DNA of 64,000 nucleotides from an uncultured Chitinophagaceae bacterium. GTDB lineage: Bacteria > Bacteroidota > Ignavibacteria > UBA10030 > UBA8401. Where the stretch lies: assembly GCA_964603685.1 (NCBI GenBank), contig CAZRWF010000005.1, positions 2,721 to 66,720 on the forward strand, written 5' to 3'. This document shows, piece by piece, positions 25,738 through 64,000 of this stretch (its first letter is position 1; the number at the start of each line of letters is the position of its first letter). The position numbers and the translations under genes were made by a program. Under the pieces are notes generated by a model. The model did not search any database, was not told the DNA's origin, and saw nothing but the letters and a program-made list of their open reading frames with translations.

Positions 25738-25759
25738 GAGTAAATAATTGAGGCAAACC

Positions 25760-27049: not shown

Positions 27050-27064
27050 GATGATCCTTCTTGA

Positions 27065-28303
27065 TTATTTGATGATAACTTTGTCGCCAACCTGAATTTC
27101 CTGTTCGGTTTCGATCGGTTTCACCGTGGCAAATTTATCCTGCACTTGGATGACGATGATCTCTCCCAGCCGTGTCACTTTTTTTCCGAGGATTTCGCCG
27201 GAGATGGGATGTTTGATACTCTCTCCCTGACGAAACACCACACACTTGGTCCCTTTTCGAACGCCATTCACTCCGCCGATGTCGATATATAACTCGTCCG
27301 GATCGACTTTGATGATATCCCCTTCGATGATCGGAAGTTCATTATAGAGCATCGTTGCGACATTGGAGACGGCCATATCGATCGCTTCGGTGGAGGTGGA
27401 CTCCGAAACGATATCCTGAGCGATCAACGTTTCCGCCGTCTCTACATCCACCAAACGTGCAGAGACCTTCACTCCCGTTCCGGCAGCGGAGATTGTTCCG
27501 ATGACGAGAGCATCCGCACCGGCAATCTTGCCGAGTTTGACAGCCGATTTATCATCGACAAATCCCGATGCCTGCATCTTTTGTTCCGCAACAATTTTGT
27601 CGATAGCCGAACGTTCGATCACTTTAAACCGACGCAAGTTCACCAATTCGTTGATCATTTCGTTCGTCACGGTCTCTTTCCATGCGGCAGCAGGACCCGC
27701 CGCGTCGAACGGCAATACGGCCACCGCGAGCCGGGAACCGACCTGTGTCGCTTTATTCGGATCATATTTTTTTGTCACGATCAGCAGGCTGTTTTTCTGC
27801 GGTTGTGCGGTCAGCGGTACGGAAGTGCTGACGGCCGGCTCCGTTACTTTCGGTTTCGATTTATCCTCCACTCGCGTTACGTCGGCGACCGGAACTGTCT
27901 CTTTTTTCGGCGGAGGAACCGGTTCGGTTTTTTTGACGATCTTCGGCGGTGCTACCCCACCCGTGATCTTCCGATAAAATTCCTCCGCCCGTTCGGTCGA
28001 GCGGTAGGCCATCGATAGTTCCAATTCGGCTTTTGCCGCGTCGATCTCCCCCAGCATATAGTGCGCAATGCCGATCTCGCGGTGCGGATAATATTCGATG
28101 AATCGGGTGCCGTACGTCCGTTTCCGTTGCACATCTTCGAACTCTAAAGAGACGGCCGATTTGAATTCAATAATCGCCCGCTGCCAATCCTGTTTGGCAA
28201 CATATTCGAGTCCGGCATTATAGTAGTTATAAAATTTGTTTTGCGACGGAAGGAGAGCCGGGAGGAGGAAAAAAACAAGAATACATGCCAGTCGTTTTTT
28301 CAT
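27065..28303 (-). CDS. Secreted TPR-like plus CsgG/LpoB-like domain protein with a C-terminal beta-barrel (SH3/FlgT_C-like) domain
   Basis: 412 aa with a signal peptide and a TPR-like helix pair. The middle block LAVAVLPFDAAG...LVNLRRFKVIERSAIDKIVAEQKMQASGFVDD...GADALVIGTIS is typical of CsgG/HfaB/LpoB-type periplasmic domains. Confidence 0.55.
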   Translation of the reverse strand: MKKRLACILVFFLLPALLPSQNKFYNYYNAGLEYVAKQDWQRAIIEFKSAVSLEFEDVQRKRTYGTRFIEYYPHREIGIAHYMLGEIDAAKAELELSMAYRSTERAEEFYRKITGGVAPPKIVKKTEPVPPPKKETVPVADVTRVEDKSKPKVTEPAVSTSVPLTAQPQKNSLLIVTKKYDPNKATQVGSRLAVAVLPFDAAGPAAAWKETVTNEMINELVNLRRFKVIERSAIDKIVAEQKMQASGFVDDKSAVKLGKIAGADALVIGTISAAGTGVKVSARLVDVETAETLIAQDIVSESTSTEAIDMAVSNVATMLYNELPIIEGDIIKVDPDELYIDIGGVNGVRKGTKCVVFRQGESIKHPISGEILGKKVTRLGEIIVIQVQDKFATVKPIETEQEIQVGDKVIIK

Positions 28304-47823: not shown

Positions 47824-48909
47824 TTATCGAACCACTGCTTTGAATGAAACAATCCCCTCTTCACCCGGGAGAATTTTTTTCGTGATTTTCCATTGAATCG
47901 AGATGACCGCCGATTGTTGCGGAGGTGTCACCGTCGACCGGACCACGGTAATCTCGCAATCCTCCCCTGCCGCGGAATTTTCCACGTACGTCATGTTTGC
48001 GGGGACATCATTGGTGATTGTCGCATCCTGTGCGAACGCCGTGCCGATGTTGTGGTAGAGAACGGAATAGGTAACCGTATCCCCCGGAAAGGGATTCATA
48101 CGATCGGCCGAATTGATCAACGCCAGCTCCGTTGTTTCTTTTTTGGAACTGTTCATCACCTCCAGATGCGAAGCTTGGATGGCCGATTTTTCAAAATTTT
48201 TCACCGTTGTCGCATTCACGCGGAAGGACAACACCTCGGTTTCCGCTCCGGCGGAAGAGACATTTTCGGACGACACCACAACGGTTTTTCCCGGTCCTTT
48301 TTGTTCTCCCGCTGCGGTCGTGACTGCCGTTCCGGCAATGCCGGAGATCAGCACAAACGGATAATCCGCCTTCCCCTTTTCCACCCGTGTCGTCAGCACT
48401 CCGTTTGCACCGACCGGGCGGAGATATCCGTCCCCGAACAGTGTGAGCATGGCGGAATACGTTTTGTTGGGAACAGATTTTACTTTCAGCGCAACGGTCA
48501 CCGTTTTCCCGAGCGGCATCGTTTCATCGGCAACGATATTGGATTCCCACGTAACGGTCACGGCATTTGCCCCTGTGCCGGAAGAGTACACTGCGGTTGT
48601 TTTCAGGCCGGTCGATTGGACTTTAGCTTTTGCCGCAAAATCTTTCGCCGTAACGGAAAGAATCGTCTTCTGCCCCTCGTTGAGCCGTAAAAAAACGAAC
48701 GATTGATCGGTGTTATTCGAAAGCCAGAATCCGAATGTCGATTCCTCTTTCGGATTTTTGACGGGCCGGACAACCGCAAAGGCGATCTTCCCGCTTTTCG
48801 TTTTACCCGGAGTATTCACTTGCAGCTGATAGTCATGCAGCTTCAATTGCGTACCTTGCGAAAACGCCAATGAGCTGACAATCAAACTCACGATGAGGAA
48901 TGTTTTCAT
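47824..48909 (-). CDS. 361-aa secreted protein: unique N-terminal about 255 aa plus a C-terminal DUF11 module
   Basis: Signal peptide MKTFLIVSLIVSSLAFSQG. C-terminal PFPGDTVTYSVLYHNIGTAFAQDATITNDVPANMTYVENS...GIVSFKAVVR. AGGAG 7 nt upstream. Confidence 0.65.
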   Translation of the reverse strand: MKTFLIVSLIVSSLAFSQGTQLKLHDYQLQVNTPGKTKSGKIAFAVVRPVKNPKEESTFGFWLSNNTDQSFVFLRLNEGQKTILSVTAKDFAAKAKVQSTGLKTTAVYSSGTGANAVTVTWESNIVADETMPLGKTVTVALKVKSVPNKTYSAMLTLFGDGYLRPVGANGVLTTRVEKGKADYPFVLISGIAGTAVTTAAGEQKGPGKTVVVSSENVSSAGAETEVLSFRVNATTVKNFEKSAIQASHLEVMNSSKKETTELALINSADRMNPFPGDTVTYSVLYHNIGTAFAQDATITNDVPANMTYVENSAAGEDCEITVVRSTVTPPQQSAVISIQWKITKKILPGEEGIVSFKAVVR

Positions 48910-48925: not shown

Positions 48926-51900
48926 TTAGTTGACGATCGTTTTAAACTTTATTTGTTTGTATGATCCCGGTGACACCGTGGCAAACGTGACCGTGATGGT
49001 CGTTCCGGCAACGGTCACTTCGTCCCCATCCGAAGCATTCGTTTTTGCCGTACCGTTCACTTCGATCCCTTTGCCGACGTCGAATCCGTTCGCCAGAAAT
49101 GTGGTATTGGCGGGGATCGTATAGACCGCCGAGACCGATGTTGCGTTGGATGTACCGTTGTTACTGTACTTCAGCGTATAGACCAATGTGTCCCCGGGAA
49201 CAGGATTTTGATGACTGACCACATTGGTGTCGATGGAAATATTGGCAATGTTGGTGATCGCGATCGATGTCGAAACATCTTCCACGTTGGAACCGCCGAA
49301 ATCGATCTGCGCCGTATTGGCGATCGATTCCAACACATCCATCAGCGAATCGGTATTGGCGGTGAATGTCCGGGACGTGGATGCACCGCTCGCCAACGAG
49401 AAGGATGGCCATGTCACCGTACCTCCTACCAGACTGCCGTTTCCGTTGTTGACCCGCCCAGAAATATTGCCCCCGTTGCTGATGCTTCCGGACTTCAAAA
49501 TAAGGTTGTCATCGAGGGGATCGGTCACCACAATCGTCCCCTTGGTGACATTATACGGATTTGTGATCGATATAGTATAGAGCAAAGAATCCCCCGCGTG
49601 TGCGGTACCGCCGTTAATGTCGGACACGGTTTTGGACGAGACATTGGAACCGATGCCCCAATCCCCGACAATCGAAGAAGTAAGGCCTGATGATTCCACA
49701 TAGTTCGCCACGCTGTCAAAGGAGGTCGCGTTCCGATTTTGCCACGAAGTGCCGTATTGCCACAATTTCATTAATGTTTCATTCAAACTGTTCGCTTCAC
49801 TGTTTTCGTAATGCAGCCGCAGCGTGCTGGTCAATCCGCTGCCGCCGGTGATGGCGATGTTTACCGTCCTATCGACGGCGACAAATGTCGGCGAAGCAGG
49901 CGTTGCGGACGCGACCGTCATCGTCACCGAACTGGGAGGCGTACCGGCCGTGAACACTATGGTGGTATTCGGGCCTTCAAACGCGTACGGCGTAGATAAA
50001 GCGAATACATGCGTACGCGTGACCGTACCGAAAATTATTCCATTGCCGGTCCGGGTTCCGGTGATCGTCAACGTGTTGGCTCCGGTCGAAATCGTGCCGG
50101 AATTCATATCGACATTCACCGTTTGGATGTTTCCGGCAGCCGTTACGGTCGTGGCACTTTGCGTTTTATTCACCACAAGTTCATAAAATGTGGTAGCTCC
50201 GGTGATGGTCGATGCCGAACCGCCGGCAAACACAATTTTCGATGTAGCGGCGGCGAATGATCCGGTGGTGGTCCAATGGCCGTATACCGTATCGGTGGTC
50301 GCTCCTGCATTTAATGTGGTACCGGCTCCCACCGTTACATTTCCCATAATCCTCAACGCTCCGGCGATGGTTTTCGTCCCTCCCGTTGCCGTATGAAGAT
50401 TATTATAGAGAAAGGCAGGAATCGATTGTGCGCCGCTGCCGGAAAATTCGATCGTACTTCCGGAAACGACATATTCCCCTCCCGAAAATGTTGCTGCCGG
50501 AATAAATTGTTCGGCAATGCCGATCGTTCCGGAGGCGAGAGTCACCGCATTGGCGCCACGGCTGCCGCTCAGTTTTAGTGTATGGTACGCAAACGCCGGA
50601 ATGGTTTGCGCCCCTGTTCCGTTAAAATCGACGGCGCTGTTGGTGAAGGACAACGTTCCGCCGCTCATGGAAACTGCCAGCGTCCCGGCGATTCTCACCG
50701 TATCGCTCGGAGCAACGACAACAGTATTCCCCCCGCGTGCTCCGCTGATTGAAAGATGGTGATACGCAAACGGAACAATCGTCTGTGCTCCCGTTCCATT
50801 GTAAGCAATCTTGCTGCCGGAAACGATGTACCCGCCGGATGTGAAACTCGCCGCGATGTTCAAAGAATCGGCCACGCTGATCGTATCACCGGAAACCAAT
50901 GTCACGGAATTTGTCGTCCGTGCACCGCTGATGCGCAGCGAGTGGTAGGAAAACGCAGGAATCGTCTGTGCACCGGATCCGTTAAAGTCCACAATGCTCC
51001 CGTTCACGGCATACGATACCGATGAGGCGCTGATTGTCAGCGATCCCGCCACACCGATCGTATCGCTGTTCGCCATGGTGACCGTGTTGCCGCCGCGCGC
51101 ACCGCTGATTGTCATGTTGTGATAATCGAACGCCGGAACCGTTTGGGCACCCGCTCCGTTAAATTCGATCGTATTCCCCGTTCTCACATACGAACCGCCG
51201 GTAAACGTTGCGGTCGGAGTGAACGTACCGGAGACAGAAATTGTACCGTTCGGCAGCGTAACGGAATTATTTCCGCGGGCACCGCTGATTCCGAGATGGA
51301 CGTAGGAATTTGCTTTGACGGATTGTGCTCCGGTGCCGAAATAATTTACCGTATTGTTTGACGCAGAAGCCGTCAGCGTACCGGTCGCCAGCAACGTATC
51401 GCTCACGGCGAGCACGGCGCCGGAACCGTTTATCCAGGTCGATCCGGCGGCATCACCGATTAACCGTGCCATCGCAATGCTGCCGCTGTTCGTCACCGTA
51501 TTTCCGGATCCGATACGAACACGGTACAGCGTGTCGTTTGTCGCCGTCATCACTTTATTGGTTCCCGAGACGAACAATGTCGATGTGCCGGTCGTTTTTC
51601 CGCCGGTGCCGGAGAGCGTATCCTGGTCCGAATCGTTCCATCGAATCTGACCCGAACCGCTCCATTGTCCGCTGAACGCAAAATTGCCGTACAGATCAAG
51701 CCGGTATCCGCCGTCCGACAATTCCGCTCCTGAAGCGATCGACACGTTGGTGATTTCGCGGTCATCCACCAATGAAACGATGTGGGGACTTACGATAAAT
51801 ACTTTATCCCGCTTTTTGGGGACTTTGTTCAAATCCCATGTGGCGGCCGTCGACCAATTTCCGGTGACTACGGAAGTGTATGTTTCCGAACTCCCTTTTC

Positions 51901-54900
51901 CCACGGCAAATTCACTGAAGGAGGAGACGTTCATCGCCCGGACACTGGTGGATGTAATCACCCCGACTGTCGCGTCGCTCCACACGCCGTTATCTTTTTT
52001 AACGACCAGCATGTCCGAAAAATCACTGATACCGGCATCGACATCGCCGGCGATCCAATTGACCGTCATATTGTAGGAATCGAACACCGTGCCGTTATTG
52101 ATCACGATCCAATAACGGTTGACGGTGGAATCGGCAAACACACCGGCATTCGCAACATCCGGATGATCCCCGTTGACGGTTTTTGCCGTCACATATCCGG
52201 CGTTCGATACTGTTCCGAATGATATAGTCACGGGGAGATAATTCGAGGAGGAGCCGATCGCATACGTGATCGAGTCTGATCCCGGGGTGAAATACCGTTT
52301 TAAAAATCCGTTCACGTATCCGGACGTACGCGTCAACGATCCGGTGGAGGTGATCGTGACCGAATCCGACGTCGCCGTGACGATGCCGTTCGTCAACGTC
52401 AACACGCCGTTCACGATCATATCGTCCGACAACGTGATACCGTTCGACGTATTATTCAATTCCATATTTGTGAACGATCCCGTCCCCGCAATCCTGTGCT
52501 CACTCGTGCCGTTGAACAAAATTTTTCCCGCTCCGGTGTGCGCACCGTCGTTCTGGATGCTATCCTTCACGGTGATCGTAAAGCCGCCGTCGGCAAATGT
52601 CGCGCCGGCGCCGATGGTCAAATTCTGATCGACGATCATTCCGGCAGCGGCTGTTTTTGTTCCGCCGCCGCTGATGCGGAGACTATGATAGGTGTGTGCC
52701 GTGACCGTTTGTGTTCCACCTGAAGAATCATACCCGAATGTTCCGCCGACCAACGAAACCGTTCCGGCGACGGTAGGAAAGGCACCGCGTGTGCTGACGA
52801 TACCGCTGTATTGCGTAAAATTACCGCTCACCGACAACGTCTTTCCGGCAAGAATGGTCACACGCGCCGTATCGTTATGGACGATCAGATCGTTGCAGTA
52901 GGCGTCCACATTCACCGTGATCGTATCCTTACCGTCGAACACGATATGGTTCCCCGACGTCGGGACACTATGCGAACTCCAATTGTAATCATCTCCCCAG
53001 TTGTACGTTCCAGCCCCTTTCGTCCAATAAAACGTCAACGAAGCTTCACCGACCGCAAAATCGCCGAATCCCGTAATCCCGGTTGTTTTTGTACTGGTGG
53101 AATTTCGCACGTTGATCGTGGAAGGACTCCATGTGGTGTTGTACCGTTTTACGAAGAAGTACGCCGTATTGGCACCCGCATCGATATCGCCGGCAACAAA
53201 ATTGAACGTCGCATCATACGTACTGAAAGTCAATCCCGCACCGGATAATGTGTAGAACCGGTTCACATCTTTATATTCATCGAGTCCGGAATATTTCACC
53301 TGCGGATGATCCACCGCTGTTTGGCTCGCCATAACCGTTCCACCGACGCTCACCGATTGGAAAGTCAATTCGACGGGAGTGTAATTCGTCGCATCTCCGA
53401 CTTGGAACGTATAGGTTTGCGGGGACCCGCTCACTCCGATGGTCTTTTGGAGAAATCCGTGCACATGTCCCGCCGTTCGCGATGTCCCCGGGAAGACGGA
53501 ACAGGAAATAACGTTGCTGCCGGTGGTCATCACGCCGGACGTGAGGACCAAAATGCTGTCGACGGTGAAGTTCGCATTGACAGTTGCCCCGTTGATATCG
53601 TTCAGTTCGAGAATTCGGAACGAGCCGCCGCCGGAAATCTGATGCGCCGAGGAACCACCGGCGAGGAGAGTTTTCCCGGTACCGGAGCCGGTATTGACGG
53701 TGTTGTTGGAAATATTCCCTTTCACTGTGAGCGTATAGATACTGTCGCTCAGCGTCGCCCCGCTGATCGACAGATTGCCGTTCACCGTGGCATTTCCCGA
53801 CAACTTTTTCCAATTGCTTCCGCTGACGGTAAGATGTTGATAATAGGCCCAACCGTTGACGGTCTGCGGCGAAGTTCCGTTAAAATCGATCGTATTTCCG
53901 GTGAGGGTATGACCGGTCGCCGTTCCCGGCGTGAACACCGATGCGATCCCGACCGATGACGGAAATGTTTTGTTGAAATTACTCAGAATCAGATTTCCGT
54001 AATTTCCCGGCAATATATTCTGTCCGTTCGACCCTTTGCTATAATTCACCGTTCCGATCGCATCGCTGGAGATCGTTCCGGACGTCACTGCGGTCGCATT
54101 GGCGATATATAAGGTCATTGTACCGACACCCAAATTACCGGCAACGAGTTTCAACGAGTCGGTCACCGTCAACGAATCGGACATGTTAACACCGGCACTA
54201 TTGTTGATTTCCAACTTGTTCACCGTTCGTGCCGTGGGAGTGGTGGTGAACACCCCCGTGGATTGGAGCGCGCTTCCGGCAAAAATATAATTTGCCAGAC
54301 TGCTGTACGTCCGCGTTCCGGTCACCTGAACATTTCCGGTTGCACCGGCGGAGGTGATGCCGTCAACGGACGACGATTCGAGCGTGCCGTTCACCAAAAG
54401 GGTGAACGATCCGCCGCCGCTCAATACACTGGAACCGGCGAATGCGAGCCAGGAACCGCTGTGCACACGGTAATTGACCGTATTGGAGACGGTCCCTCCG
54501 GACGTGTATACTTGACGGGAAGTTCCGTTAAAGACGATGGTGCCGGACCCGGTACTCGTTTCGGTGATCACTCCGGATGTATGCGTAAAATTCCCTCCGA
54601 CTTTCAAACTATCCACCGAAGCGGAACCGCTCAGATTCAACGAGTCGCCGGACATCAGAACGCTCCCGGAAACCGTCAAATGGACGGCAGCCGTGGACGT
54701 GGTGACAAACCGCAATGTGCTGCCGGTTCCGCGCACGACGAGACTGTCGCCAATCGTCACCGTGTACGCCGTCGCTCCGGTCTGTTTCATTAGCACTTTG
54801 CTTGTTCCCTCCACTTTAAAACTTCCGCCGATGGTCTTGGATGCGGCCGTATTATTGTTGATCAGCAATTGCTGTCCGTTGGTGTTCAACACCTCAAAAT

Positions 54901-57900
54901 TTCCGTTCACCGTTACCGGATTTCCCGCCAGCGCAATCACGGCGCTTTGCGCGGCATTGTTCCAGACGAAATTTCCGAACGTCTGCGCAAGACTCGTCGG
55001 TACGGTATTGGTCGTACCGGTGATCTCCACCGTTGAATTCGCATTCCACGTGGTGGTCATTCCGACATTGATCGCACTGCCATTCACGTCATGGATATAC
55101 TTCCCGCCGCTCATATACACCGCCGAGGGTCCGCCGTTGACGCTGAATGTTCCGGCATCCCATTTCACCGTTCCATACACGGTCAGATCCGTACCGGCAC
55201 CATTCCGAATTTGCAGTGTGCCGCCCGTTCCGATCACCAACGTCCCCCCTTCTTCCACCACAATCTGGTCCTGTCCGTTCGTCACACCGGAAAGATTGGT
55301 GGTGACCGTCACCGTATGCCCGTTTCGAATCGTAATTTGCCCGCTGGCCAGCACCGGCGAAGAGACGGCGTTCACCCAATTCGTTCCGTCGAAGCGTTCC
55401 CAGACATTGGTGAAATCATTCCATGTCCCGGATCCTTTGGAGCGAAAAGCGTTGTTCGCATCGCGCAATCCGATGATATAGATACCCAAGGAGTCGATCC
55501 CGAGCGCTTGATTGGTCGTCGTAGTTCGTGTTCCGGCCGTTGTACTATCCCAGAACGAACCATTATACCAGTTCATCCGGAATGTGGCTGATCCTGCTAT
55601 ATCACAATCACCTGCCACATAGGTAAGAGTTAGGTTGTATCCGCTCGCCGTGTTATAGACAAGATCGGAATATCGGGTCTGCCAATAGCGATTGACATTA
55701 TCCGCTGGATTGACGAACGACGTTGCGGATTCCGGATGCTCTTCGGCGACTGTGGAGACGGTCAACGTTCCGGCAACAGAAACGGAGGCAAAAACGAATT
55801 GTGCCGGCGTATAATTATTGCCTGTTCCAATCTCGTACGTAACGGTGACATTCGATCCGGTTCCGACAGATTTTTTCAACCATCCGGTAACATGTCCTGA
55901 GTTCCGCGAAACTGTTCCTGATGACGAAATAATGACGGTATCGGACGCATTGGTGATGTTACCGTTGAGCAATCGTAACGTTCCGTTGATCGTCATATTA
56001 CCTGTCAGTGTGATCCCGTTGGCGTTGTTCACTTTCAGATTGGTAAAGGATCCTCCGCCGCTGATGCTTTGAGCAGTTGATCCGGACAGATCGAGATAAT
56101 TCGTTCCGTTCTGCGTTCCATTATTGATCACATTACCCAAAACGCGCATCGTGTCGGCACTCGAGACGGTCAGGGTTACGGAACCACCGATCGTCAATGT
56201 TCCGGTGACGGTATCGGCACCGGATTGTTGGGTTTTTGTTCCGGAAGTACTGAGGGTAAGATTATTATAGAGGAACGAAGGAATATTTTGCGCTCCCGAA
56301 CCGTTAAAATCCATTGTATTGCCGGTGATAGTATGTCCGGCGGCTGAACCGGAAGTAAAGACGTTCGCAACCCCGACAACTCCTGCGGGAAGAATTTTCG
56401 TAAAATTACTGAATGTTAAATTGCCGTAGTTCATCGCCAGCACGGTTTGACCATTGCTGCTTTGATTATAATTGATCGTTCCGGTGGCAGCACTGGTGAC
56501 CGTTCCGCCGGATGAAACGTTACCATTAAGCGTGAGCGTATTGGTTTGGATATCCATCGTTCCGGAAAGCACGGCGAACGAATCCGAAACGGTGACGCTG
56601 TTCTGAAGTGTGAGCGTACCGGAAGATTTGCTCACGGTCAATTTATTGAATGTTTCACCCGATGGGTCGATCACCGATTGAGCACCCGTTCCGTTGAACG
56701 TTACTTTTCCCGCACCGGGGGTGAACGTTTGACTGTTGTTTTCCCAATGCCGCGCGACGCCAATGTCCAATCCGTTCGCGTTCAGTGTTCCGGCAGTGAT
56801 GGTGAGATCGTTCAAGACCGTCAATCCGTTCGTGATCAGTTGCGCCGTCGCATTCGAGCTGTTGACGACAAAATTATAGACAGGAATGGAAACGTTCACT
56901 CTCATCGTTTGCGCCGCCGGAGTCAAACCGGTGTATCCTATTTGAACCGTTCCCCCGGTTACCGAATAGCTCGTAAAGCCCGACAACACAAATCCCAGAT
57001 CTTCGGCACCGGTTCCTCCTTCTTTTTTCACGATTATCGTACCGCCGCTCATAACAAAATTGGATCCGGCGAGACTGATGTTAAACGGAGCGTAGGTGGC
57101 GGACGTACTTCCCGAATCGGCCACGATCATCGTGCCGCCGGTCATCGTCAAATCGGTGATGACGTACGCATTGTTCGGAATAAATCCGCCGCGCACCAGA
57201 ACTGTGCCGCCGTTGATCGTGAAGGCGCCGCCGGACGAGATCAAATTGTGTCCGGTGTTGTTTCCGATCGTGACCGTACCGGCCTGAACGCGAAATTCAC
57301 CGGCAACCGTCAGACTCCCTCCCGTTGTGGATAAAGATGCCGAGGCATGATTGACGCGGATCCCTCCGCTCGAAGGAATCGAAGCGGCGGCGGTGAACGG
57401 TGTTACCGACGCACCCGTCGCCAGATTGAACGTTCCGTTCGTCAAGGTCAAAAAATTCGTCGTCGAAACCGAAAAATTCGTCGCAAAAATATCCAAAATA
57501 TTCGAGCGGGACGTACCCATATTCAATGTCATCAAATAGAATCGGGTGGAATCGCCGTTGCCGTTGACGGTCTGTGTCCCATTTTTATTGAAGGTCACGG
57601 CACACCGGCTGTCCGCATCGGTCGCCATGACGAACCGTCCGCTGTTGGCAATGTTGCCGGAAACCGTCAGCGTATGTGACGAGGTGTTCGAAACGCCGTT
57701 CACGCGAAAGACGGCGCCGGCATTCACCGTCACGTTGCCGATCACCGTGATGCTGCGCGCGGTGTTGTCGTCCCCGATTAACAGCGTTCCGCTGGCCCCC
57801 TGACCGACGGTGAGACTATTCACCGTCACAGTCGAATCGATCACAATCACGGTTCCGTCCGCAATGGTCGCGTTGTCCGAAATTCCCGGAACCACACTGG

Positions 57901-59032
57901 TGGACCACACGGCAGGATTTTTCCATGAACCGGACGTGATGGTGTACGGCGCTCCGGCGGAAAGGGTGGCCTGATTTCCCGCCAATGCTGTGCTTAACCG
58001 GCCTTCGTTCACCGCGTAGACTTTAAAATAGTACGTCGTTCCGGCGAGTAATCCGGTTGCAGCGTAGGATGTTGCATTGGCCGCCGTTTGGCCGAGAAAA
58101 TTGTACGTCGCTCCTCCGTCATCCGAGCCATAAACGGCAAATCCGACTTCATTCCATAACGTATCGACCCAGTTCAACGTCATGCCGGTCTGTGACACAC
58201 CGGTGAACGTTAATGTATGCGGTGCATTCATATCCGGCGGCGTAAACGTCAACCGGGATCCGGAGGCCGGCATCGTTACCAGATTGTGCGTTTCGGTCGC
58301 CGAAAACGTGGCGGTGTTTGCGGTCTGTTGCACCTGCAACTGGTCCGGCTGTGCCGTTCCACTCATGGTCGGACCGTTAATACCGATCGTATACGTGAAG
58401 CCGAAGGTCCCCTGATTCATCGTGGAATAATTGTATTCGATCACCCCGGAACTTTCGTACAATTTCGCCTGGAAGTTCAAATCGGGTGTCGTATTCCCGT
58501 ACACCGCCATGCTGATCCATTCCACGGTCAGGACTCTGTTCGGAGCGACGCCGGTGACGGAATATTTGATACCGTCACCCAAAGGATCGGTGCCGCCGTC
58601 CGTCGTCAAGTCGTCGTAAAAAGGTGCCAGAGCGGTCAGAGTTCCGGTGGTTCCGGAAAATTGTGCGTTCACATAACTGTAGGCCCCGCCGTCCGGACCG
58701 CCGAGCGCCGTCGAAGAAGAAAAGTCGATAAAACCGTTGGTCGAAACAGAAAAATGCGTGTACCGAACACCGCGGTACCAAAAATCAAATCCGATCTCGA
58801 TCTGAAAACTGCGGTTGTCGTCCAAATTAAAATTTCCGTTGGAGCTGTTTCGCCAATTCGGGACCGATGATCCGGTGAGATCAATACTGTTATACGTGTT
58901 GCCGGTGGTGCGGGCGACCGTATATCGCGCGAGGGTTTGTCCCATTACGATCGTTGATGCCGCAAGAGACAACAAGGCGGCAACGGTGATCCACCGTGTT
59001 TGCCCTGTCCTATAAATGCTCTTTTCGTTCAT
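48926..59032 (-). CDS. Giant 3368-aa secreted protein: NIDO-like N-terminal domain, Fn3, repetitive beta-helix-like modules, C-terminal DUF11 modules
   Basis: Uninterrupted 10.1 kb ORF with a signal peptide. NIDO-like IGFDFWYRGVRYTHFSVSTNGFIDF (about 58418-58825). Fn3 (about 57992-58231). Many G/T/S/N-rich repeats of the form ..FNG.GAQ.IP.F.Y..L.ISG. Ends ...GSYKQIKFKTIVN. Confidence 0.8.
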   Translation of the reverse strand: MNEKSIYRTGQTRWITVAALLSLAASTIVMGQTLARYTVARTTGNTYNSIDLTGSSVPNWRNSSNGNFNLDDNRSFQIEIGFDFWYRGVRYTHFSVSTNGFIDFSSSTALGGPDGGAYSYVNAQFSGTTGTLTALAPFYDDLTTDGGTDPLGDGIKYSVTGVAPNRVLTVEWISMAVYGNTTPDLNFQAKLYESSGVIEYNYSTMNQGTFGFTYTIGINGPTMSGTAQPDQLQVQQTANTATFSATETHNLVTMPASGSRLTFTPPDMNAPHTLTFTGVSQTGMTLNWVDTLWNEVGFAVYGSDDGGATYNFLGQTAANATSYAATGLLAGTTYYFKVYAVNEGRLSTALAGNQATLSAGAPYTITSGSWKNPAVWSTSVVPGISDNATIADGTVIVIDSTVTVNSLTVGQGASGTLLIGDDNTARSITVIGNVTVNAGAVFRVNGVSNTSSHTLTVSGNIANSGRFVMATDADSRCAVTFNKNGTQTVNGNGDSTRFYLMTLNMGTSRSNILDIFATNFSVSTTNFLTLTNGTFNLATGASVTPFTAAASIPSSGGIRVNHASASLSTTGGSLTVAGEFRVQAGTVTIGNNTGHNLISSGGAFTINGGTVLVRGGFIPNNAYVITDLTMTGGTMIVADSGSTSATYAPFNISLAGSNFVMSGGTIIVKKEGGTGAEDLGFVLSGFTSYSVTGGTVQIGYTGLTPAAQTMRVNVSIPVYNFVVNSSNATAQLITNGLTVLNDLTITAGTLNANGLDIGVARHWENNSQTFTPGAGKVTFNGTGAQSVIDPSGETFNKLTVSKSSGTLTLQNSVTVSDSFAVLSGTMDIQTNTLTLNGNVSSGGTVTSAATGTINYNQSSNGQTVLAMNYGNLTFSNFTKILPAGVVGVANVFTSGSAAGHTITGNTMDFNGSGAQNIPSFLYNNLTLSTSGTKTQQSGADTVTGTLTIGGSVTLTVSSADTMRVLGNVINNGTQNGTNYLDLSGSTAQSISGGGSFTNLKVNNANGITLTGNMTINGTLRLLNGNITNASDTVIISSSGTVSRNSGHVTGWLKKSVGTGSNVTVTYEIGTGNNYTPAQFVFASVSVAGTLTVSTVAEEHPESATSFVNPADNVNRYWQTRYSDLVYNTASGYNLTLTYVAGDCDIAGSATFRMNWYNGSFWDSTTAGTRTTTTNQALGIDSLGIYIIGLRDANNAFRSKGSGTWNDFTNVWERFDGTNWVNAVSSPVLASGQITIRNGHTVTVTTNLSGVTNGQDQIVVEEGGTLVIGTGGTLQIRNGAGTDLTVYGTVKWDAGTFSVNGGPSAVYMSGGKYIHDVNGSAINVGMTTTWNANSTVEITGTTNTVPTSLAQTFGNFVWNNAAQSAVIALAGNPVTVNGNFEVLNTNGQQLLINNNTAASKTIGGSFKVEGTSKVLMKQTGATAYTVTIGDSLVVRGTGSTLRFVTTSTAAVHLTVSGSVLMSGDSLNLSGSASVDSLKVGGNFTHTSGVITETSTGSGTIVFNGTSRQVYTSGGTVSNTVNYRVHSGSWLAFAGSSVLSGGGSFTLLVNGTLESSSVDGITSAGATGNVQVTGTRTYSSLANYIFAGSALQSTGVFTTTPTARTVNKLEINNSAGVNMSDSLTVTDSLKLVAGNLGVGTMTLYIANATAVTSGTISSDAIGTVNYSKGSNGQNILPGNYGNLILSNFNKTFPSSVGIASVFTPGTATGHTLTGNTIDFNGTSPQTVNGWAYYQHLTVSGSNWKKLSGNATVNGNLSISGATLSDSIYTLTVKGNISNNTVNTGSGTGKTLLAGGSSAHQISGGGSFRILELNDINGATVNANFTVDSILVLTSGVMTTGSNVISCSVFPGTSRTAGHVHGFLQKTIGVSGSPQTYTFQVGDATNYTPVELTFQSVSVGGTVMASQTAVDHPQVKYSGLDEYKDVNRFYTLSGAGLTFSTYDATFNFVAGDIDAGANTAYFFVKRYNTTWSPSTINVRNSTSTKTTGITGFGDFAVGEASLTFYWTKGAGTYNWGDDYNWSSHSVPTSGNHIVFDGKDTITVNVDAYCNDLIVHNDTARVTILAGKTLSVSGNFTQYSGIVSTRGAFPTVAGTVSLVGGTFGYDSSGGTQTVTAHTYHSLRISGGGTKTAAAGMIVDQNLTIGAGATFADGGFTITVKDSIQNDGAHTGAGKILFNGTSEHRIAGTGSFTNMELNNTSNGITLSDDMIVNGVLTLTNGIVTATSDSVTITSTGSLTRTSGYVNGFLKRYFTPGSDSITYAIGSSSNYLPVTISFGTVSNAGYVTAKTVNGDHPDVANAGVFADSTVNRYWIVINNGTVFDSYNMTVNWIAGDVDAGISDFSDMLVVKKDNGVWSDATVGVITSTSVRAMNVSSFSEFAVGKGSSETYTSVVTGNWSTAATWDLNKVPKKRDKVFIVSPHIVSLVDDREITNVSIASGAELSDGGYRLDLYGNFAFSGQWSGSGQIRWNDSDQDTLSGTGGKTTGTSTLFVSGTNKVMTATNDTLYRVRIGSGNTVTNSGSIAMARLIGDAAGSTWINGSGAVLAVSDTLLATGTLTASASNNTVNYFGTGAQSVKANSYVHLGISGARGNNSVTLPNGTISVSGTFTPTATFTGGSYVRTGNTIEFNGAGAQTVPAFDYHNMTISGARGGNTVTMANSDTIGVAGSLTISASSVSYAVNGSIVDFNGSGAQTIPAFSYHSLRISGARTTNSVTLVSGDTISVADSLNIAASFTSGGYIVSGSKIAYNGTGAQTIVPFAYHHLSISGARGGNTVVVAPSDTVRIAGTLAVSMSGGTLSFTNSAVDFNGTGAQTIPAFAYHTLKLSGSRGANAVTLASGTIGIAEQFIPAATFSGGEYVVSGSTIEFSGSGAQSIPAFLYNNLHTATGGTKTIAGALRIMGNVTVGAGTTLNAGATTDTVYGHWTTTGSFAAATSKIVFAGGSASTITGATTFYELVVNKTQSATTVTAAGNIQTVNVDMNSGTISTGANTLTITGTRTGNGIIFGTVTRTHVFALSTPYAFEGPNTTIVFTAGTPPSSVTMTVASATPASPTFVAVDRTVNIAITGGSGLTSTLRLHYENSEANSLNETLMKLWQYGTSWQNRNATSFDSVANYVESSGLTSSIVGDWGIGSNVSSKTVSDINGGTAHAGDSLLYTISITNPYNVTKGTIVVTDPLDDNLILKSGSISNGGNISGRVNNGNGSLVGGTVTWPSFSLASGASTSRTFTANTDSLMDVLESIANTAQIDFGGSNVEDVSTSIAITNIANISIDTNVVSHQNPVPGDTLVYTLKYSNNGTSNATSVSAVYTIPANTTFLANGFDVGKGIEVNGTAKTNASDGDEVTVAGTTITVTFATVSPGSYKQIKFKTIVN
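50390..51360 (-). repeat. In-frame tandem array of about 5.3 degenerate copies of a 177-183 nt (59-61 aa) unit inside the giant gene
   Basis: The landmark ccgctgat recurs at 50742, 50925, 51102 and 51282, with the variant ccgctcag at 50565. Protein unit: F(N/S)G.GAQ(T/S)(I/V)PAF.Y(H/N).(L/M).ISGARG.N.VT............(G/S).Y...G..I. Confidence 0.75.
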
Positions 59033-59056: not shown

Positions 59057-62000
59057 TTATTTGTGAAAATAATTCAAAATCTTTTCGGTGAATTTCGCAC
59101 GAACCGACAGGAACGGTCCGGCCGATTGATAGTCGCGTCCGACGAGGTCTTTGTCCTCGGTGCCGACAAAATTGTATCCAACGGCAAAGCGGAGATTTTC
59201 GAACACCACATTGCCGATCTCCGCACTGTATCCGTGTTTCGCCGATTGAGAATTGGCCTGTCCGGCAATACGGGAACTCAGGATCCGGTATTCCGCCGCA
59301 ACATCGAAGCTGTTCCAGCGCAAGTCGTATTCCGCCCGGAGCAGGTAGAAATCGGTCACGGCTGATGCCGACAGGCCGTAGGCCTCATCCGTCGCATATT
59401 TGAGCGCATACTTGGTGCCGATTTCCAAACCGAAAACCGGTTCGATGAAAGTATGGAGCGAAACGATATCCGCGGAGGAGGAGGTGTTCGGCATAACGAC
59501 GCCGTTCCGTTCGATTCTCTTTTCATACTTGCCGATCGCATTCAGCCAATCCATTTCCGTCGGACGGTAGGCGATGCCGATCGCATTATCGAACTTGGAG
59601 AGCGTGCCGCTTCCGGCCGGCGTTCCGATCTGTTGCGCCGAAAGGACGCCATCGGAGAAAGTGGACGACGGCGTTTGCGGAGCGATTCTCTGTTCCACAT
59701 AATACGTGAATTTGTCGATCACGGTAAAGTCGTTCGCCAATCGGATGTCACCGGCGAAGGAAAGGTTCTTTCTCACCGCTTGGGTATTTTTTGCATACTC
59801 CCCTTTAATCGTCGCTTTGTACGATTCTTTCGGCAGATATTCCAAACCTAACGAAAGTGCATCATTGTCGTTCGTCTTCGCTTCCGCCAGTTGGCGATCC
59901 AACGCACGAGTCCGTTCGAATGCCGCATTGGCCGTCACTTCTTCCGACAATTTCGTTGTGTTCTTTAAGCCGATGCTCGCCTGGTTCCGTTTGCCGTTGA
60001 TTCCGTTACCGATTTCGTACCGGCCGGTCATCGTCGTTCCGTATCCGAGTTCCGATCCGACGCCGAAGATGGTGGAACTTCCGCTGCCGATATAGAAACG
60101 CTGCTGTGCGGACAGCGTTATGTCGTCCGTCACCCGGTATTCCGCGCCGATGGCTGCGCTGGAGGGTGTGATCTGTTCTTTCGCCGAACTGCTGATACTT
60201 TGTTCGTATTCACCGGTCAGGTTAATCCGATCGTTCGCGCGTACGGTCGTTTTCGCGTTGATCAACGTCGATTGTTTCGTGTCAACCAACGCTGTATCCA
60301 TGCGGGCGCTTTCGTATCGCAGATTTTCCGCACGGAGTGCGATGGTGGCAAAACTGCTGATCTTCCGTTCCGCACCGCCGGTGATGGAATGAACGTTCAC
60401 AGAGGCGTTACCGCTCGTTTGTTGTTGGGAATAAAAATCCGCCATGAGTTTTGTCTCAAACAGTCCGTCATACACACCGCCCACGCCGTATTTCGTCGAA
60501 CCGAGTTCTGCAGCACCGCCGGCTCCGGCCGTTTGGTTGACGAAACCGGATTCCACTTTGCGGAAATACGATTTCACTTGCATCCGGTCGATCGGTGCAC
60601 CGCCGAGTTCGATTTTCCACGCCGCACCGCTGTTCGACACGTCAGAGCCGTGTGCCACTTCCACATTCGTTTGCAGGCGGTCGGCATACGAATACCGCGT
60701 ATACACGCCAAGCACGGTGTAATTGGTCGGCATCCGTTCTTCCGTCACCGCCGTCGCGCCGATCGTCCACCCTTTCAGAATCCGTTGTTCTGCCTGCACG
60801 CCGGTGACGTAGTTCGTCGGGAAACCCGATTGAGATTCGTACGAAACGACGATGTACACCGGATTTCCCGCTTGATCGATGCTGTTCACCGGTTGTTTGA
60901 AGAACAATGTTCCTTGAACGTAGTCGATCTCATAATCACCGAAGCGGGATTTTTCGGCACGGTTGACGATCACTTCATTGTGCCGTTTGTCGCGCGTTTC
61001 GATTCTGATTTTTTCCGAACCCGGAACAACGTTGCTCACACCGAGGAAATAATATCCCGAAATACCTTGTCCGCGGATCTCATCCTGCACCACTTTCCGG
61101 TCAGTGACCGTCGCAAATACATCCGCTTTGCCGGTGCGCGATTCATAATGACCGCTGATGCCGGTGAATGTCCGGTCGTACCGGGCCAGTTCGTTCTGAC
61201 CAAACGCCGTATTAAAATCGCCGAACATCAGATACGAACGGTTCAATTCCAATTTGAGGAAGAACGGATTGCTTGTCTGTGCCGTATAGTCCACGCGACT
61301 GTTGTCGCCATAGATGGAATAGAGCACATCCGGATCAAGATCGCGGAAGAGCCGGTCCTTCTGGCGGCGTTGATTGTCGAACGAAGCCGTCAGAAGATAT
61401 TTTTCCATCACGGTTCCCCGTCCGTAGAAGGCGAGGCGTCCTTCGGAATGGAATCCGTCGTCGATGGCCGACCGGTTTTTGATTCCGGTAAGATTGCCGG
61501 AAGCGGACAACAGCGATCCTTCGGCATCCGCGGAACCGACGATCATCAACGGCACGATCGGTGTCGTAAATTCGATCTCTTGTGCAGCGGAGACATTACC
61601 CCACGATGCGGCGATGGTGGAAACAAGCGATGCGGAGGGAGACTGAATGCCGAACCGTACTTTCCCGCTGTCAATTCTCACTTGAATGCCGTCCTGATTC
61701 GGATCCACATCCGTCGCGACAATTCCGGCGGTGTCGCTGGTAAGGGTCACATGGTACATTCCGGGAATGATGACGCCGAATTTGTCTTTCACAATCGCTT
61801 CGAACGAAGACGTGGTGCGTCCGTCCGCAACAAATGCATTCGCCGCGGAGACGATGTCGATCGCGTGCGGTTCACCGGCGACATGCATCCGCACGGTATC
61901 CGTTTCCGGGAACAATCCGTGCGCAACGACCGCAAACGTTACCGGGCCTTGTTCGACGGCGATATTCAGGAAATCATGGACTCCGTCCGGACGAACCGTA

Positions 62001-62194
62001 CCGGAATCGACGGCCGTACCGTTCATCCACAACACGACCTTCGTCCCCGGGGCGGCAGAGATGATCACCGCTTGGCGCGTCATCATGCTGACCTCGTTCT
62101 GCGCGGGCGTTACGATCTGCAGCCGTTGAGCGAACGAAACGCTCGCAGCGGCGATCAGAATCAAAAGGTGATATGTAAGATGTCGGAGTTTCAC
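59057..62194 (-). CDS. 1045-aa putative outer-membrane beta-barrel protein with N-terminal Ig-like (Big_1-type) domains; GTG start
   Basis: Signal peptide MKLRHLTYHLLILIAAASVSFAQ. Big_1-like ADGRTTSSFEAIVKDKFGVIIPGMYHVTLTS. About 800 aa of alternating amphipathic, aromatic-capped strands (e.g. FYLLRAEYDLRWNSFDVAAEYRIL, NLRFAVGYNFVG, GPFLSVRAKF). Confidence 0.55.
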   Translation of the reverse strand: MKLRHLTYHLLILIAAASVSFAQRLQIVTPAQNEVSMMTRQAVIISAAPGTKVVLWMNGTAVDSGTVRPDGVHDFLNIAVEQGPVTFAVVAHGLFPETDTVRMHVAGEPHAIDIVSAANAFVADGRTTSSFEAIVKDKFGVIIPGMYHVTLTSDTAGIVATDVDPNQDGIQVRIDSGKVRFGIQSPSASLVSTIAASWGNVSAAQEIEFTTPIVPLMIVGSADAEGSLLSASGNLTGIKNRSAIDDGFHSEGRLAFYGRGTVMEKYLLTASFDNQRRQKDRLFRDLDPDVLYSIYGDNSRVDYTAQTSNPFFLKLELNRSYLMFGDFNTAFGQNELARYDRTFTGISGHYESRTGKADVFATVTDRKVVQDEIRGQGISGYYFLGVSNVVPGSEKIRIETRDKRHNEVIVNRAEKSRFGDYEIDYVQGTLFFKQPVNSIDQAGNPVYIVVSYESQSGFPTNYVTGVQAEQRILKGWTIGATAVTEERMPTNYTVLGVYTRYSYADRLQTNVEVAHGSDVSNSGAAWKIELGGAPIDRMQVKSYFRKVESGFVNQTAGAGGAAELGSTKYGVGGVYDGLFETKLMADFYSQQQTSGNASVNVHSITGGAERKISSFATIALRAENLRYESARMDTALVDTKQSTLINAKTTVRANDRINLTGEYEQSISSSAKEQITPSSAAIGAEYRVTDDITLSAQQRFYIGSGSSTIFGVGSELGYGTTMTGRYEIGNGINGKRNQASIGLKNTTKLSEEVTANAAFERTRALDRQLAEAKTNDNDALSLGLEYLPKESYKATIKGEYAKNTQAVRKNLSFAGDIRLANDFTVIDKFTYYVEQRIAPQTPSSTFSDGVLSAQQIGTPAGSGTLSKFDNAIGIAYRPTEMDWLNAIGKYEKRIERNGVVMPNTSSSADIVSLHTFIEPVFGLEIGTKYALKYATDEAYGLSASAVTDFYLLRAEYDLRWNSFDVAAEYRILSSRIAGQANSQSAKHGYSAEIGNVVFENLRFAVGYNFVGTEDKDLVGRDYQSAGPFLSVRAKFTEKILNYFHK

Positions 62195-62203: not shown

Positions 62204-62233
62204 GGAACTACCCGGATCACTCCGGATAGTTCC
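62204..62233 (-). promoter_or_regulatory. Strong intercistronic stem-loop (12 bp) between the upstream DUF11 gene and the barrel gene
   Basis: On the minus strand: GGAACUAUCCGG-AGUGAU-CCGGGUAGUUCC (one G-U). No U-tract follows. It sits in a 48-nt gap. Confidence 0.55.
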
Positions 62234-62242: not shown

Positions 62243-64000
62243 TTAGTTCACTTTCATCGTATATTTGACCTGCCGTTTTCCGCCGGCCGCAAGTGTTGTC
62301 ACCGTGGTGACATACCCGCCCGTATGTTTTTTGATCGTTCCATACAAAGTTCCGGCCGTCGACGGATGATTCGGAATCGTCACATGATCGGAGTTGGCTG
62401 CTTCCGTTCCGGTCACGAGATCCCACAGGTACGCCGAGTTGGAGACGTTCGTCATGTTCGCATTGTTCGCGATATTGTCCTCGATGATGACGTCTTTCGC
62501 TTCACCATCCCCCGTGTTTTCGATAAGCACATAGATTGTCACGGAATCGCCCGGCATAATCGACGCTAAGCTGTTCGTGCTGACCGTATCGCCGGCCGTC
62601 GCTTGGTGAATCTTTTTCGAGCGGGTCACGACGATATTCGGCAACAGCGGATCGACTTGGCCATGGAGATTGTAATCGGTCGGGATGTTGACTGAATCGC
62701 GACGCGAGTTGACATGGTGACGGATGTGGGTGATCGCCGTGGTCAATCCGCTCGGAACCGCCATGCGGATGTACACCGTGATGCTGGCACCTTTGGCGAT
62801 CAATTTGGTGGTATTGAGATCGGCACCGCCGCCGCCGGATGCGAACAAGGAATCCTGCGAACCGCTGAACCCGGCACCGGTCACTTCATACCAGAACCGT
62901 CCGGTGCTCCACGTCCCTTGCGACGCAGTGTTATACCGTACATTAAATCCGTCCTGACCGTTGCTGTTGTTGGTAATGGTGTAAGCAAACGTCACTGTAT
63001 CGCCCGGATCGGCCGATTCGGTCGTATCGACAATGGCGATGTCGGATTGCTGCAAGAAGGATTTGAACAAGACGCTGAACGATTGCGGCGAATTCGCGAT
63101 CACGCGGGTGCGTCCGATTTTTCCGTTCGTGGAATCGTTGTAGGTAACGGATAACGTCGGTGTGCGCGTCGTTCCTTCCAGGACGCTGTGTAAATCCGCC
63201 ATCAACAGGAATAAACTGTCGGCGGAATCGGTCGTCGAGGAACCGCCGTTCGACGCCACGGTGCCGAGGTTATAGGAGCGGGACGATCCCGAACCGGACC
63301 AGTTCGTTCCGGAAGAGAACGTTTGATTCGCATCGAACGTCACGGTGATGGTGACATTCTCCGCACGGCCGGAGCCGGCGTTCGACACCGTTGCGTTGTA
63401 TCCGGTGGTCGCACCGGGACGATATCCGGCCTGACCGCGGGTGACCGACAACGTCAACTTGGATTGTTTCACGCGGGTGGTCCGTTCCACGGTGGACGAA
63501 AGAGCATTTTGGAACGAAGCGGCCACGGCGCGCGGACCGGTCGCATCGGTGTTCAGATACGTCGTATCGGTCATGTTCGCGGTGGAACGGGTAAAGAAGC
63601 TGATGACGATGTTGTTCTTGTCATACAAATATCCCGAACCGGTGCTGTCCGCTTCCGATTTGAGATACAGCTTCGCATACACGGTCGCGTTGCCGTCGTT
63701 CGTCACGGTGTCCTGAAGGACGTTTTTATTCGTGCCGAGCAGCGCTTCCGTGAGGCCGGCATTTTTGTACCAGCCGATGCTGTCCAAATACGATGCACCG
63801 CCGGTGACATTAGCCAGGAATTGAAATTTATCCTGACCGTTACCGTTGTTGGTGACCGTCATGGTGTATACGATATATCCGCCGTCGTATGCTTCGCCGC
63901 TGGACGTTCCGACGTTGAGCGTGGAAGCCGGCCGATGGGCCACGTAGACGCTGACGGAACCGTTCACGGCGGACATCGCCGAACCGTTTTTATCGTTGTA
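62243..64000 (-). CDS. Secreted multi-DUF11/CARDB-like repeat protein, C-terminal 585+ aa (5' end beyond the window)
   Basis: The reading frame stays open to the window edge (YNDKNGSAMSAVNG...). Modules such as YTMTVTNNGNGQDKFQF, YNATVSNAGSGRAENVTITV and FAYTITNNSNGQDGFNVRY. The C-terminal DUF11 module ends ...GKRQVKYTMKVN. Confidence 0.7.
   Translation of the reverse strand, partial: YNDKNGSAMSAVNGSVSVYVAHRPASTLNVGTSSGEAYDGGYIVYTMTVTNNGNGQDKFQFLANVTGGASYLDSIGWYKNAGLTEALLGTNKNVLQDTVTNDGNATVYAKLYLKSEADSTGSGYLYDKNNIVISFFTRSTANMTDTTYLNTDATGPRAVAASFQNALSSTVERTTRVKQSKLTLSVTRGQAGYRPGATTGYNATVSNAGSGRAENVTITVTFDANQTFSSGTNWSGSGSSRSYNLGTVASNGGSSTTDSADSLFLLMADLHSVLEGTTRTPTLSVTYNDSTNGKIGRTRVIANSPQSFSVLFKSFLQQSDIAIVDTTESADPGDTVTFAYTITNNSNGQDGFNVRYNTASQGTWSTGRFWYEVTGAGFSGSQDSLFASGGGGADLNTTKLIAKGASITVYIRMAVPSGLTTAITHIRHHVNSRRDSVNIPTDYNLHGQVDPLLPNIVVTRSKKIHQATAGDTVSTNSLASIMPGDSVTIYVLIENTGDGEAKDVIIEDNIANNANMTNVSNSAYLWDLVTGTEAANSDHVTIPNHPSTAGTLYGTIKKHTGGYVTTVTTLAAGGKRQVKYTMKVN

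Follow-up and report, generated by a model that had tools for sequence, protein, structure and literature searches.

The window considered here, a contiguous stretch of 64,000 nucleotides from contig CAZRWF010000005.1 of an uncultured Chitinophagaceae bacterium (assembly GCA_964603685.1, placed in the Ignavibacteria by GTDB), contains an operon of seven genes, all on the minus strand and followed by thrS, infC and pheST. The second gene (P0001) encodes a predicted outer-membrane protein in which two immunoglobulin (Ig)-like domains precede a giant β-barrel. It is accompanied by genes for proteins with DUF11 domains (PF01345), since renamed CLIPPER; this CnaA-like domain forms the stalk of fibrillar adhesins and in many cases contains an isopeptide bond (PMC12617251). 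The features of the locus are outlined in Table 1.

Table 1 Features of the operon and of the barrel protein, with positions counted along the window (aa, amino acids; ORF, open reading frame; HMM, hidden Markov model; pLDDT, predicted local distance difference test).
Feature	Position	Strand	Extent or sequence	Basis
Operon gene 1, CLIPPER/DUF11 subunit	62243..64000, past the window edge	minus		Pfam DUF11, TIGR01451, end-module HMM
Stem-loop between operon gene 1 and the barrel gene	62204..62233	minus	GGAACTATCCGGA gtga TCCGGGTAGTTCC; 12-13 bp, loop GUGA/AGUGAU	
Operon gene 2, barrel gene (P0001), Ig-Ig-giant-barrel	59057..62194	minus	1045 aa	ORF list, translation, homologues, AlphaFold2
Signal peptide, signal peptidase I type (..SFA/Q)	62126..62194	minus	aa 1-23	Read from sequence; N-terminal helix in model
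Ig-like domain 1	61880..62119	minus	aa 26-105	AlphaFold2 strands, pLDDT 87-90
Ig-like domain 2, Big_1 / Invasin_D3-like	61565..61864	minus	aa 111-210	AlphaFold2 β-sandwich, pLDDT 84-90
Predicted transmembrane β-barrel	59087..61546	minus	aa 217-1036 (820 aa)	DSSP of AlphaFold2 model, hydrophobicity pattern
Conserved loop between strands 3 and 4	61280..61363	minus	aa 278-305; DRLFRDLDPDxLYSIYGDNS	Alignment, conservation profile
Inserted β-sandwich between strands 7 and 8	60830..61099	minus	aa 366-455	Conservation, separate folding
Last barrel strand, β-signal-like end, then 10-aa tail	59090..59119	minus	G-P-F-L-S-V-R-A-K-F	Sequence
Operon gene 3, giant protein, fn3 + DUF11	48926..59032	minus	3368 aa	Pfam, termini, end-module HMM
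Operon gene 4, C-terminal CLIPPER end-module only	47824..48909	minus	361 aa	Pfam, termini, end-module HMM
Operon gene 5, subunit	46117-47799	minus	560 aa	N-terminal AGTPAGT... and C-terminal end-module
Operon gene 6, subunit, paralogue of the 560-aa subunit	44421-46094	minus	557 aa	N-terminal AGTPAGT... and C-terminal end-module
Operon gene 7, stalk-and-anchor protein	39685..44424	minus	1579 aa	Pfam, NCBIfam, BLASTP

An initial annotation of the window, made from its letters, had described the barrel gene with its strand omitted. Translation of the minus strand reproduces the ORF as well as both peptides quoted there, with ADGRTTSSFEAIVKDKFGV...AAQEIEFT corresponding to aa 123-210 and NLRFAVGYNFVGTEDKDLVGRDYQSAGPFLSVRAKF plus ten residues forming the C-terminus. 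The start codon is GTG (62194-62192), and the claimed signal peptide can be read in the sequence as cleavable (MKLRHLTYHLLILIAAASVSFA/Q), with no lipobox cysteine. At the opposite end of the protein, K1034 of the last barrel strand is invariant in the alignment and F1035 is present in at least 90% of the sequences. Scanning of the single sequence yielded no match in NCBIfam and only a sub-threshold match to Big_1 in Pfam.

The structure was predicted with AlphaFold2 on an alignment of 41 sequences sharing 31-73% identity, and the mean pLDDT of the whole-protein model was 78.8. Within the first Ig-like domain R68, D70, F75 and G83 are invariant in the alignment. The second, for which a Big_1-like fold had been proposed in the initial annotation, is modelled as a β-sandwich with Foldseek matches to intimin D0-D1 and invasin, and Big_1 was detected by Pfam in 17 of the 41 homologues (Invasin_D3 in 10). 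The Pfam matches of the target itself are weak, both lying under the curated cut-off (Big_1 E 4e-4, aa 113-209; Invasin_D3 E 0.018).

According to a DSSP analysis of the model, the barrel region consists of 38 antiparallel strands, seven before the inserted domain and 31 after it. Strands 3-5 are short in the model and their inclusion is provisional; the even total of 38 would fit a barrel. Across the alignment, hydrophobicity alternates in most of the strands in the fashion of membrane strands. Furthermore, the connections alternate between short turns (mean ~3 aa) and long loops (mean ~10 aa, up to 37). In barrels of this kind the turns commonly face the periplasm and the loops the outside; by this parity the Ig-like domains would be periplasmic, and the loop of aa 278-305 and the domain of aa 366-455 would arise on the outer side. 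The very large barrel proposed in the initial annotation is returned by AlphaFold2 as a continuous run of antiparallel strands, whose closure into a ring is presumed. With ~38 predicted strands the barrel would exceed any solved barrel in size.

The barrel wall is moderately conserved, whereas the loop of aa 278-305 and the inserted domain rank with its best-conserved stretches in the whole protein. In the loop D287, P288, Y292, Y295, G296, D297 and S299 are invariant, and its pLDDT in the model is below 50. The inserted domain has the consensus RGxGISGxY...GSE...DYxIDYxxGTLFFKQP...NPVxIxVxYE and, when modelled alone, reached a pLDDT of 94 and a predicted template modelling score (pTM) of 0.84. 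Its assignment as a plug of the usher type was rejected, the best matches being weak ones to Ig-like phage tail decoration domains (E 4e-3 or worse). For the whole model the Foldseek ranking was led by the largest known barrels, namely SprA, Deinococcus SlpA and MtrB, followed by FimD and LptD, with template modelling (TM) scores of at most 0.24, which at the level of predicted folds speaks for a generic likeness of giant barrels and not for kinship.

In Pfam and NCBIfam neither the sequence of the barrel nor its profile has a family match, and sequence and profile searches of the PDB with the barrel gave nothing below E 0.1. LptD, BamA/TamA, TonB-dependent receptors, FadL and general porins were not matched significantly in any of these three resources. 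Only sub-threshold matches to generic porin models, for example OMP_b-brl and Porin_4, occur in some family members (41 homologues). Confident homology to a characterised porin or transport family unrelated to protein export, which by the initial annotation would have spoken against a translocon, was found with none of Pfam, NCBIfam, the PDB searches and hhalign against FimD.

Among the systems with which the protein can be compared is the chaperone-usher machinery. The ushers FimD and PapC likewise combine an outer-membrane barrel with periplasmic β-sandwiches and a β-sandwich inserted within the barrel sequence, and both systems have an operon of tip, shaft and terminator-like subunits apparently joined by strand complementation. 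They differ in that ushers have 24 strands versus ~38, a plug between strands 6 and 7 versus an insert on the loop side that separates strand 7 from strand 8, and two C-terminal domains versus a tail of ten residues, and the subunits of the present operon are built from CnaA-like CLIPPER domains. Neither the target nor the 41 homologues match PF00577, and a comparison of the family profile with E. coli FimD by hhalign gave a probability of 1.1%, so that usher identity was rejected. A 16-residue resemblance to FimD (DFLNIxVPxGPV versus YDIYNSTVPPGPF) was not significant by hhalign. No gene for a PapD-like chaperone was detected with Pfam and NCBIfam among the operon products, and the source genome contains no usher.

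Type V secretion was rejected as an identity too, since the target has no Autotransporter, IAT_beta or ShlB match and IAT_beta was found in only two of 41 members at E 0.033. As in type V systems, the fused form in which most family members occur (see below) places a passenger-like stalk before the barrel, Ig domains of the Big_1/invasin type adjoin the barrel, and there is a domain for binding peptidoglycan, namely OmpA in the present family and LysM in intimin. In contrast, type V barrels have 12 strands (16 for type Vb), the barrel here being three times that of 12; several separate subunit genes are present here, and stalk and barrel are separate proteins in the window. The domain order of the target, Ig first and barrel last, is opposite to that of intimin, as had been pointed out in the initial annotation. 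The commonest form of the family, with an N-terminal stalk and a C-terminal barrel, resembles a classical autotransporter in layout, the likeness extending neither to size nor to sequence.

SprA, the 36-strand translocon of the type IX secretion system (T9SS), has a comparable barrel size to that predicted here, is the top Foldseek match and passes folded proteins. It was nevertheless rejected as an identity for the target, which has no match to SprA_N (PF14349) and a Foldseek TM score to SprA of 0.19-0.20; SprA itself measures ~2400 aa. The source genome has its own SprA as a separate gene on another contig, and the cargo proteins of the present operon differ in having no T9SS C-terminal domains. 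The nearest precedent in the literature is a supplementary table, in which AAF11946, UID71982 and UID69687 of Deinococcus radiodurans are listed as predicted 38-stranded barrels with N-terminal Ig-like (invasin D3) domains (PMC9388160, SI Table S3). These proteins, compared by description only, have the same stated architecture as the target, whose tentative strand count of 38 was reached independently from DSSP, and Ig-like domains of the invasin D3 type are indicated in the target by Pfam (weakly), AlphaFold2 and Foldseek. The Deinococcus proteins appear there as table entries only, without function, partners or family description. In the literature on DUF11, TIGR01451 or CLIPPER together with outer-membrane barrels, no description of such a system was found, that table being the sole trace.

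The proteins encoded around the barrel share two recurring elements (Table 1). One is a motif following the signal peptide (AGTxAGT.I... / TAPNTPISNQA...), and the other is a C-terminal CLIPPER module common to five of the operon proteins, from which an end-module HMM was built. Motif and module are both present in the first subunit and in the 560-aa and 557-aa paralogues; the motif without the module is found in the 1579-aa anchor protein and in the fused proteins of other genomes, the module without the motif in the 3368-aa giant and the 361-aa protein, and neither in the barrel protein. As far as can be read from the sequences, this distribution matches the logic of tip, shaft and anchor, in which the giant protein, with a C-terminal end-module and no N-terminal AGTxAGT, would be a candidate for the distal part. 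Following its N-terminal motif the anchor protein carries four DUF11 domains, CarboxypepD_reg and SdrD_B, and it ends in an OmpA domain that binds peptidoglycan; the 350 aa that separate SdrD_B from OmpA were compared with the Ig domains of the barrel protein and showed no similarity. The beginning of the first subunit, taken from the contig beyond the window, reads MKNASFF... with a signal peptide and then AGTRAGT.

All operon proteins have Sec signal peptides, and Pfam and NCBIfam detected no T9SS C-terminal domains or other secretion signals in them. In the whole genome (3.18 Mb) the end-module HMM matched only the six non-barrel operon proteins, i.e. the five from which it was built and the 1579-aa anchor, together with a single further ORF, which lies on a small contig. 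The co-occurrence of the barrel with DUF11 proteins, proposed as a check in the initial annotation, was observed in other genomes: 71 of 80 barrel loci have genes with CLIPPER end-modules within 10 kb, whereas the remaining nine all lie on contigs shorter than 14 kb. Some Gram-negative CLIPPER adhesins end in an OmpA-like anchor (PMC12617251), and the partner proteins of the barrel have the same stalk domain and the same type of anchoring. For BsaA fibres, an 'exchange and lock' assembly has been proposed, i.e. donor-strand exchange that is sometimes locked by isopeptide bonds (PMC11580942); these differ in their TasA-like fold and Gram-positive host. A barrel partner or the crossing of the outer membrane by such adhesins is described in neither report.

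The gene content of the cassette bears on the question of what the barrel conducts. The weak matches of some members to OMP_b-brl and Porin_4 would suit a channel for something other than protein, either a specialised porin for material captured by the fibre or a polysaccharide exporter. The cassette contains no transport, TonB, glycosyltransferase or polysaccharide genes, however, no transporter family was matched significantly, and the fusion of the barrel to an adhesin stalk would be hard to account for, so that we regard such a channel as highly improbable.

Directly upstream of the first subunit gene, just past the right edge of the window, lies an ORF of 311 aa on the minus strand (G000:C5:66985-67917) with an N-terminal helix-turn-helix of the excisionase/MerR type (..FTTNDVAKILRVDKSTVKRWTDEGKL..), which, judged by its sequence, is a possible regulator of the operon.

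The window is one instance of a large family. We collected 154 full-length homologues of the barrel protein (31-73% identity), and an exhaustive profile search returned 5224 clusters at 50% identity with E<=1e-3 and 2433 with E<=1e-30. The named members are spread over Ignavibacteria, Balneolaceae, Marinimicrobia, KSB1, Latescibacterota, Gemmatimonadota, Verrucomicrobiota and Beta- and Deltaproteobacteria, all of them diderm, i.e. from phyla bearing an outer membrane, and in databases they are named "hypothetical", "OmpA family" or "repeat protein". The cassette is patchily distributed, being present in 33 of 201 genomes of the phylum, and some genomes have two copies (two full copies each in the related genomes G109 and G161). 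In the source genome, fragments of a second barrel paralogue (~37% identical) lie at contig ends (C155:2675-3805 and C47:1-447) and a further CLIPPER end-module protein on a small contig (C174:133-2718); the genome probably carries a second, unassembled copy of the cassette.

Most members of this family differ from the protein in the window in being fused to the stalk. Among 118 best representatives with a full barrel, 88 are stalk-barrel fusions, six are such fusions with a C-terminal extension, two have the C-terminal extension only and 22 are stand-alone barrels, so that an N-terminal DUF11/CLIPPER-SdrD stalk is fused to the barrel in ~80% of them. In Balneolaceae (24 of 33 genomes sampled) a single ORF of ~2400 aa comprises the DUF11/CarboxypepD_reg/SdrD_B stalk, the Ig-barrel and OmpA. 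When fused proteins of several phyla were aligned by BLASTP, they matched aa 864-1124 of the 1579-aa anchor and then the barrel protein, in this order, and in OmpA-bearing fusions the OmpA domain of the anchor was matched after the barrel. Conversely, in 38 stand-alone loci a homologue of the stalk module of the anchor directly precedes the barrel gene. In a FastTree phylogeny of 260 barrels 85 of the 99 stand-alone tips fall into one clade (support 0.96) inside the fused forms, and parsimony gives a fused ancestor under midpoint rooting, the rooting being an assumption. From this fused ancestor and the position of the stand-alone clade, the window locus is read, on the grounds of sequence comparison, as a fission form, in which the gene for stalk and anchor was relocated to the last position of the operon. 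What the window adds is consequently a stand-alone barrel with a separate OmpA-anchored stalk, tied to the fused proteins by a fusion/fission series.

One of the Balneolaceae genomes (G176) encodes a fused protein of 2392 aa (L016:6945-14123), in which ~450 aa after the barrel comprise the OmpA domain and similar-looking repeats; it may have more than one peptidoglycan-binding unit. The product of the gene after it exceeds 2300 aa and contains GEVED, SWM_repeat and four strong DUF11 domains.

These architectures also invite a purely structural explanation, in which the barrel, a large porin, and the OmpA protein tie the outer membrane to the peptidoglycan in the manner of Deinococcus SlpA, the stalks are periplasmic, and the link to adhesin genes is structural and not secretory. 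SlpA, a 30-strand barrel with a peptidoglycan-binding domain (PMC9388160), is indeed among the best fold matches, and OmpA domains are fused to the barrel or encoded beside it in many lineages. Most members have no OmpA domain, however, as the 88 representatives with stalk and barrel only illustrate, and CLIPPER stalks and the 3368-aa fn3/DUF11 protein are typical parts of surface adhesins. The patchy and sometimes duplicated occurrence of the cassette is likewise unlike a core envelope tether, and we consider this explanation distinctly improbable.

Alternatively, the barrel could export and hold only its own stalk, as a giant autotransporter acting in trans, and the other subunits would leave the cell via the T9SS, a type II secretion system or vesicles and dock outside. 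The commonest form of the family, with the stalk fused N-terminally to the barrel in the classical autotransporter order, points in this direction, as do the SprA of the source genome and the finding that no motif is common to the barrel protein and the subunits. On the other hand, T9SS C-terminal domains or another recognisable export signal are missing from the subunits, ~38 strands are far more than one threaded chain needs, and the cassette also occurs in phyla without a T9SS, e.g. Proteobacteria and Verrucomicrobiota. In our view a role as anchor only is unlikely.

The domain layout, the barrel prediction, the size of the family, the absence of recognised homologues, the synteny and the fusion/fission pattern were established directly. 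In our best reading, which we hold to be slightly more probable than not, the barrel serves in the outer membrane as conduit and collar for a CLIPPER fibre that is anchored on peptidoglycan and threaded through it. An OmpA domain has to lie in the periplasm and CLIPPER stalks are surface structures (PMC12617251), so that the anchor chain must cross the outer membrane. As the barrel is the only membrane protein of the cassette and the evolutionary fusion partner of the stalk, it is read as the conduit and collar. Since Sec signal peptides are the only export signals recognised in the other subunits, the simplest route for these as well would lead through the same very wide pore. The initial annotation had proposed a dedicated translocon or platform for the DUF11 neighbours, in favour of which speak the barrel prediction, the lack of porin homology, the DUF11/CLIPPER linkage and the frequent fusion; the function itself we infer from these.

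The whole would constitute a Sec-dependent surface-fibre system of CLIPPER (DUF11) proteins that operates with no chaperone and no sortase. The β-barrel assembly machinery (BAM) would insert the ~38-strand barrel, leaving the two N-terminal Ig-like domains on the periplasmic side, and the loop of aa 278-305 and the sandwich of aa 366-455 would probably cover or enter the lumen and there act as a gate or a seat for the substrate. The C-terminal OmpA domain would hold the 1579-aa stalk protein on the peptidoglycan while its N-terminal stalk is threaded out through the lumen. The other operon proteins, two of them tip-like and three shaft-like, would reach the surface via the same pore and join the stalk protein head to tail, the N-terminal strands of each subunit completing the incomplete C-terminal CLIPPER module of its neighbour in a putative complementation. 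As conduit and collar the barrel would work similarly to an usher or an autotransporter barrel and be unrelated to either.

Several points weigh against this account. Its support consists of single-chain prediction and sequence comparison, the pTM of the whole-protein AlphaFold2 model is only 0.59, and barrel closure, lumen size and the placing of the Ig and inserted domains are presumptive. A mean-field direct-coupling analysis of the pairing between strand 1 and strand 38 (346-367 barrel sequences, effective number of sequences (Meff) ~250) was powerless, as only 11% of the neighbouring hairpins used as positive control rose above the 95th percentile of non-neighbours. Furthermore, a pore of 38 strands would have to be sealed, for which the analysis identified no partner, and in the fold search the inserted β-sandwich was unlike the plug domains of ushers. 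Having neither the N-terminal motif nor the end-module, the barrel protein gives no sign of direct contact with the subunits, and a general pathway could export the latter.

A broader proposal, which we advance tentatively and rate as rather less than probable, is that the family represents a widespread, unrecognised pilus or adhesin pathway of diderms. A single-chain barrel of ~38 strands, the largest known, would pass pre-folded CLIPPER subunits, which would join via split domains, some perhaps locked by spontaneous isopeptide bonds, without chaperone, sortase, ATPase or known secretion system; the Ignavibacteria form in the window, a natural fission, would show that barrel and stalk-anchor work in trans. 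If true, this would amount to a new route of outer-membrane secretion and assembly and a new upper limit for the size of single-chain barrels, and split domains, should they lock covalently, would provide nature's equivalent of tag-and-catcher protein ligation. The barrel family is in any case a concrete candidate for the outer-membrane crossing of CLIPPER/OmpA-anchored adhesins, a step left unexplained in PMC12617251, and thousands of unannotated proteins across many diderm phyla belong to it. The stand-alone form is the most convenient experimentally, as here the barrel can be separated from the stalk for deletion and expression.

The expression arguments of the initial annotation, which had predicted lower amounts of the barrel protein than of the upstream subunit, fared differently. 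The stem-loop before the barrel gene is real and conserved with compensatory changes: across 15 orthologous loci 180 of 180 cells are paired and 11 of 12 pairs have changed on both sides, a covariation reached by none of 500 shuffles and collapsing in shifted registers, the sequences having been cut by hand in a selection that is somewhat favourable. The loop is conserved as well (GAGUGAU / AGUAAUA at orthologous positions in L018-L079). Neither a U-tract nor an Rfam match was found for the hairpin, which, from its sequence and position, may serve in processing, stabilisation or protein binding and so set the stoichiometry of subunit to barrel. A Shine-Dalgarno motif is absent before the GTG, as had been noted, yet it is present in only 12 of the 34 genes of the window and likewise missing before thrS, pheS and pheT; its absence is uninformative because it is normal in the source genome. 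Nor does the GTG start indicate low expression, as it is not conserved and orthologues use ATG, TTG or GTG.

Two further loci on the minus strand of the window were recorded. At positions 24971-28303, three adjacent envelope genes encode a 412-aa CsgG / FlgT_C / TolB_N / LpoB-like protein, a FadL/TodX-like barrel (below the cut-off) and a small OMP_b-brl protein, which by their domain matches could form a module for secretion, of the curli type or another, or for lipoproteins, with no relation to the fibre operon. Positions 17563-21792 encode a subtilase of 1409 aa (Peptidase_S8) with FG-GAP repeats, a large secreted protease with no evident link to the fibre operon.

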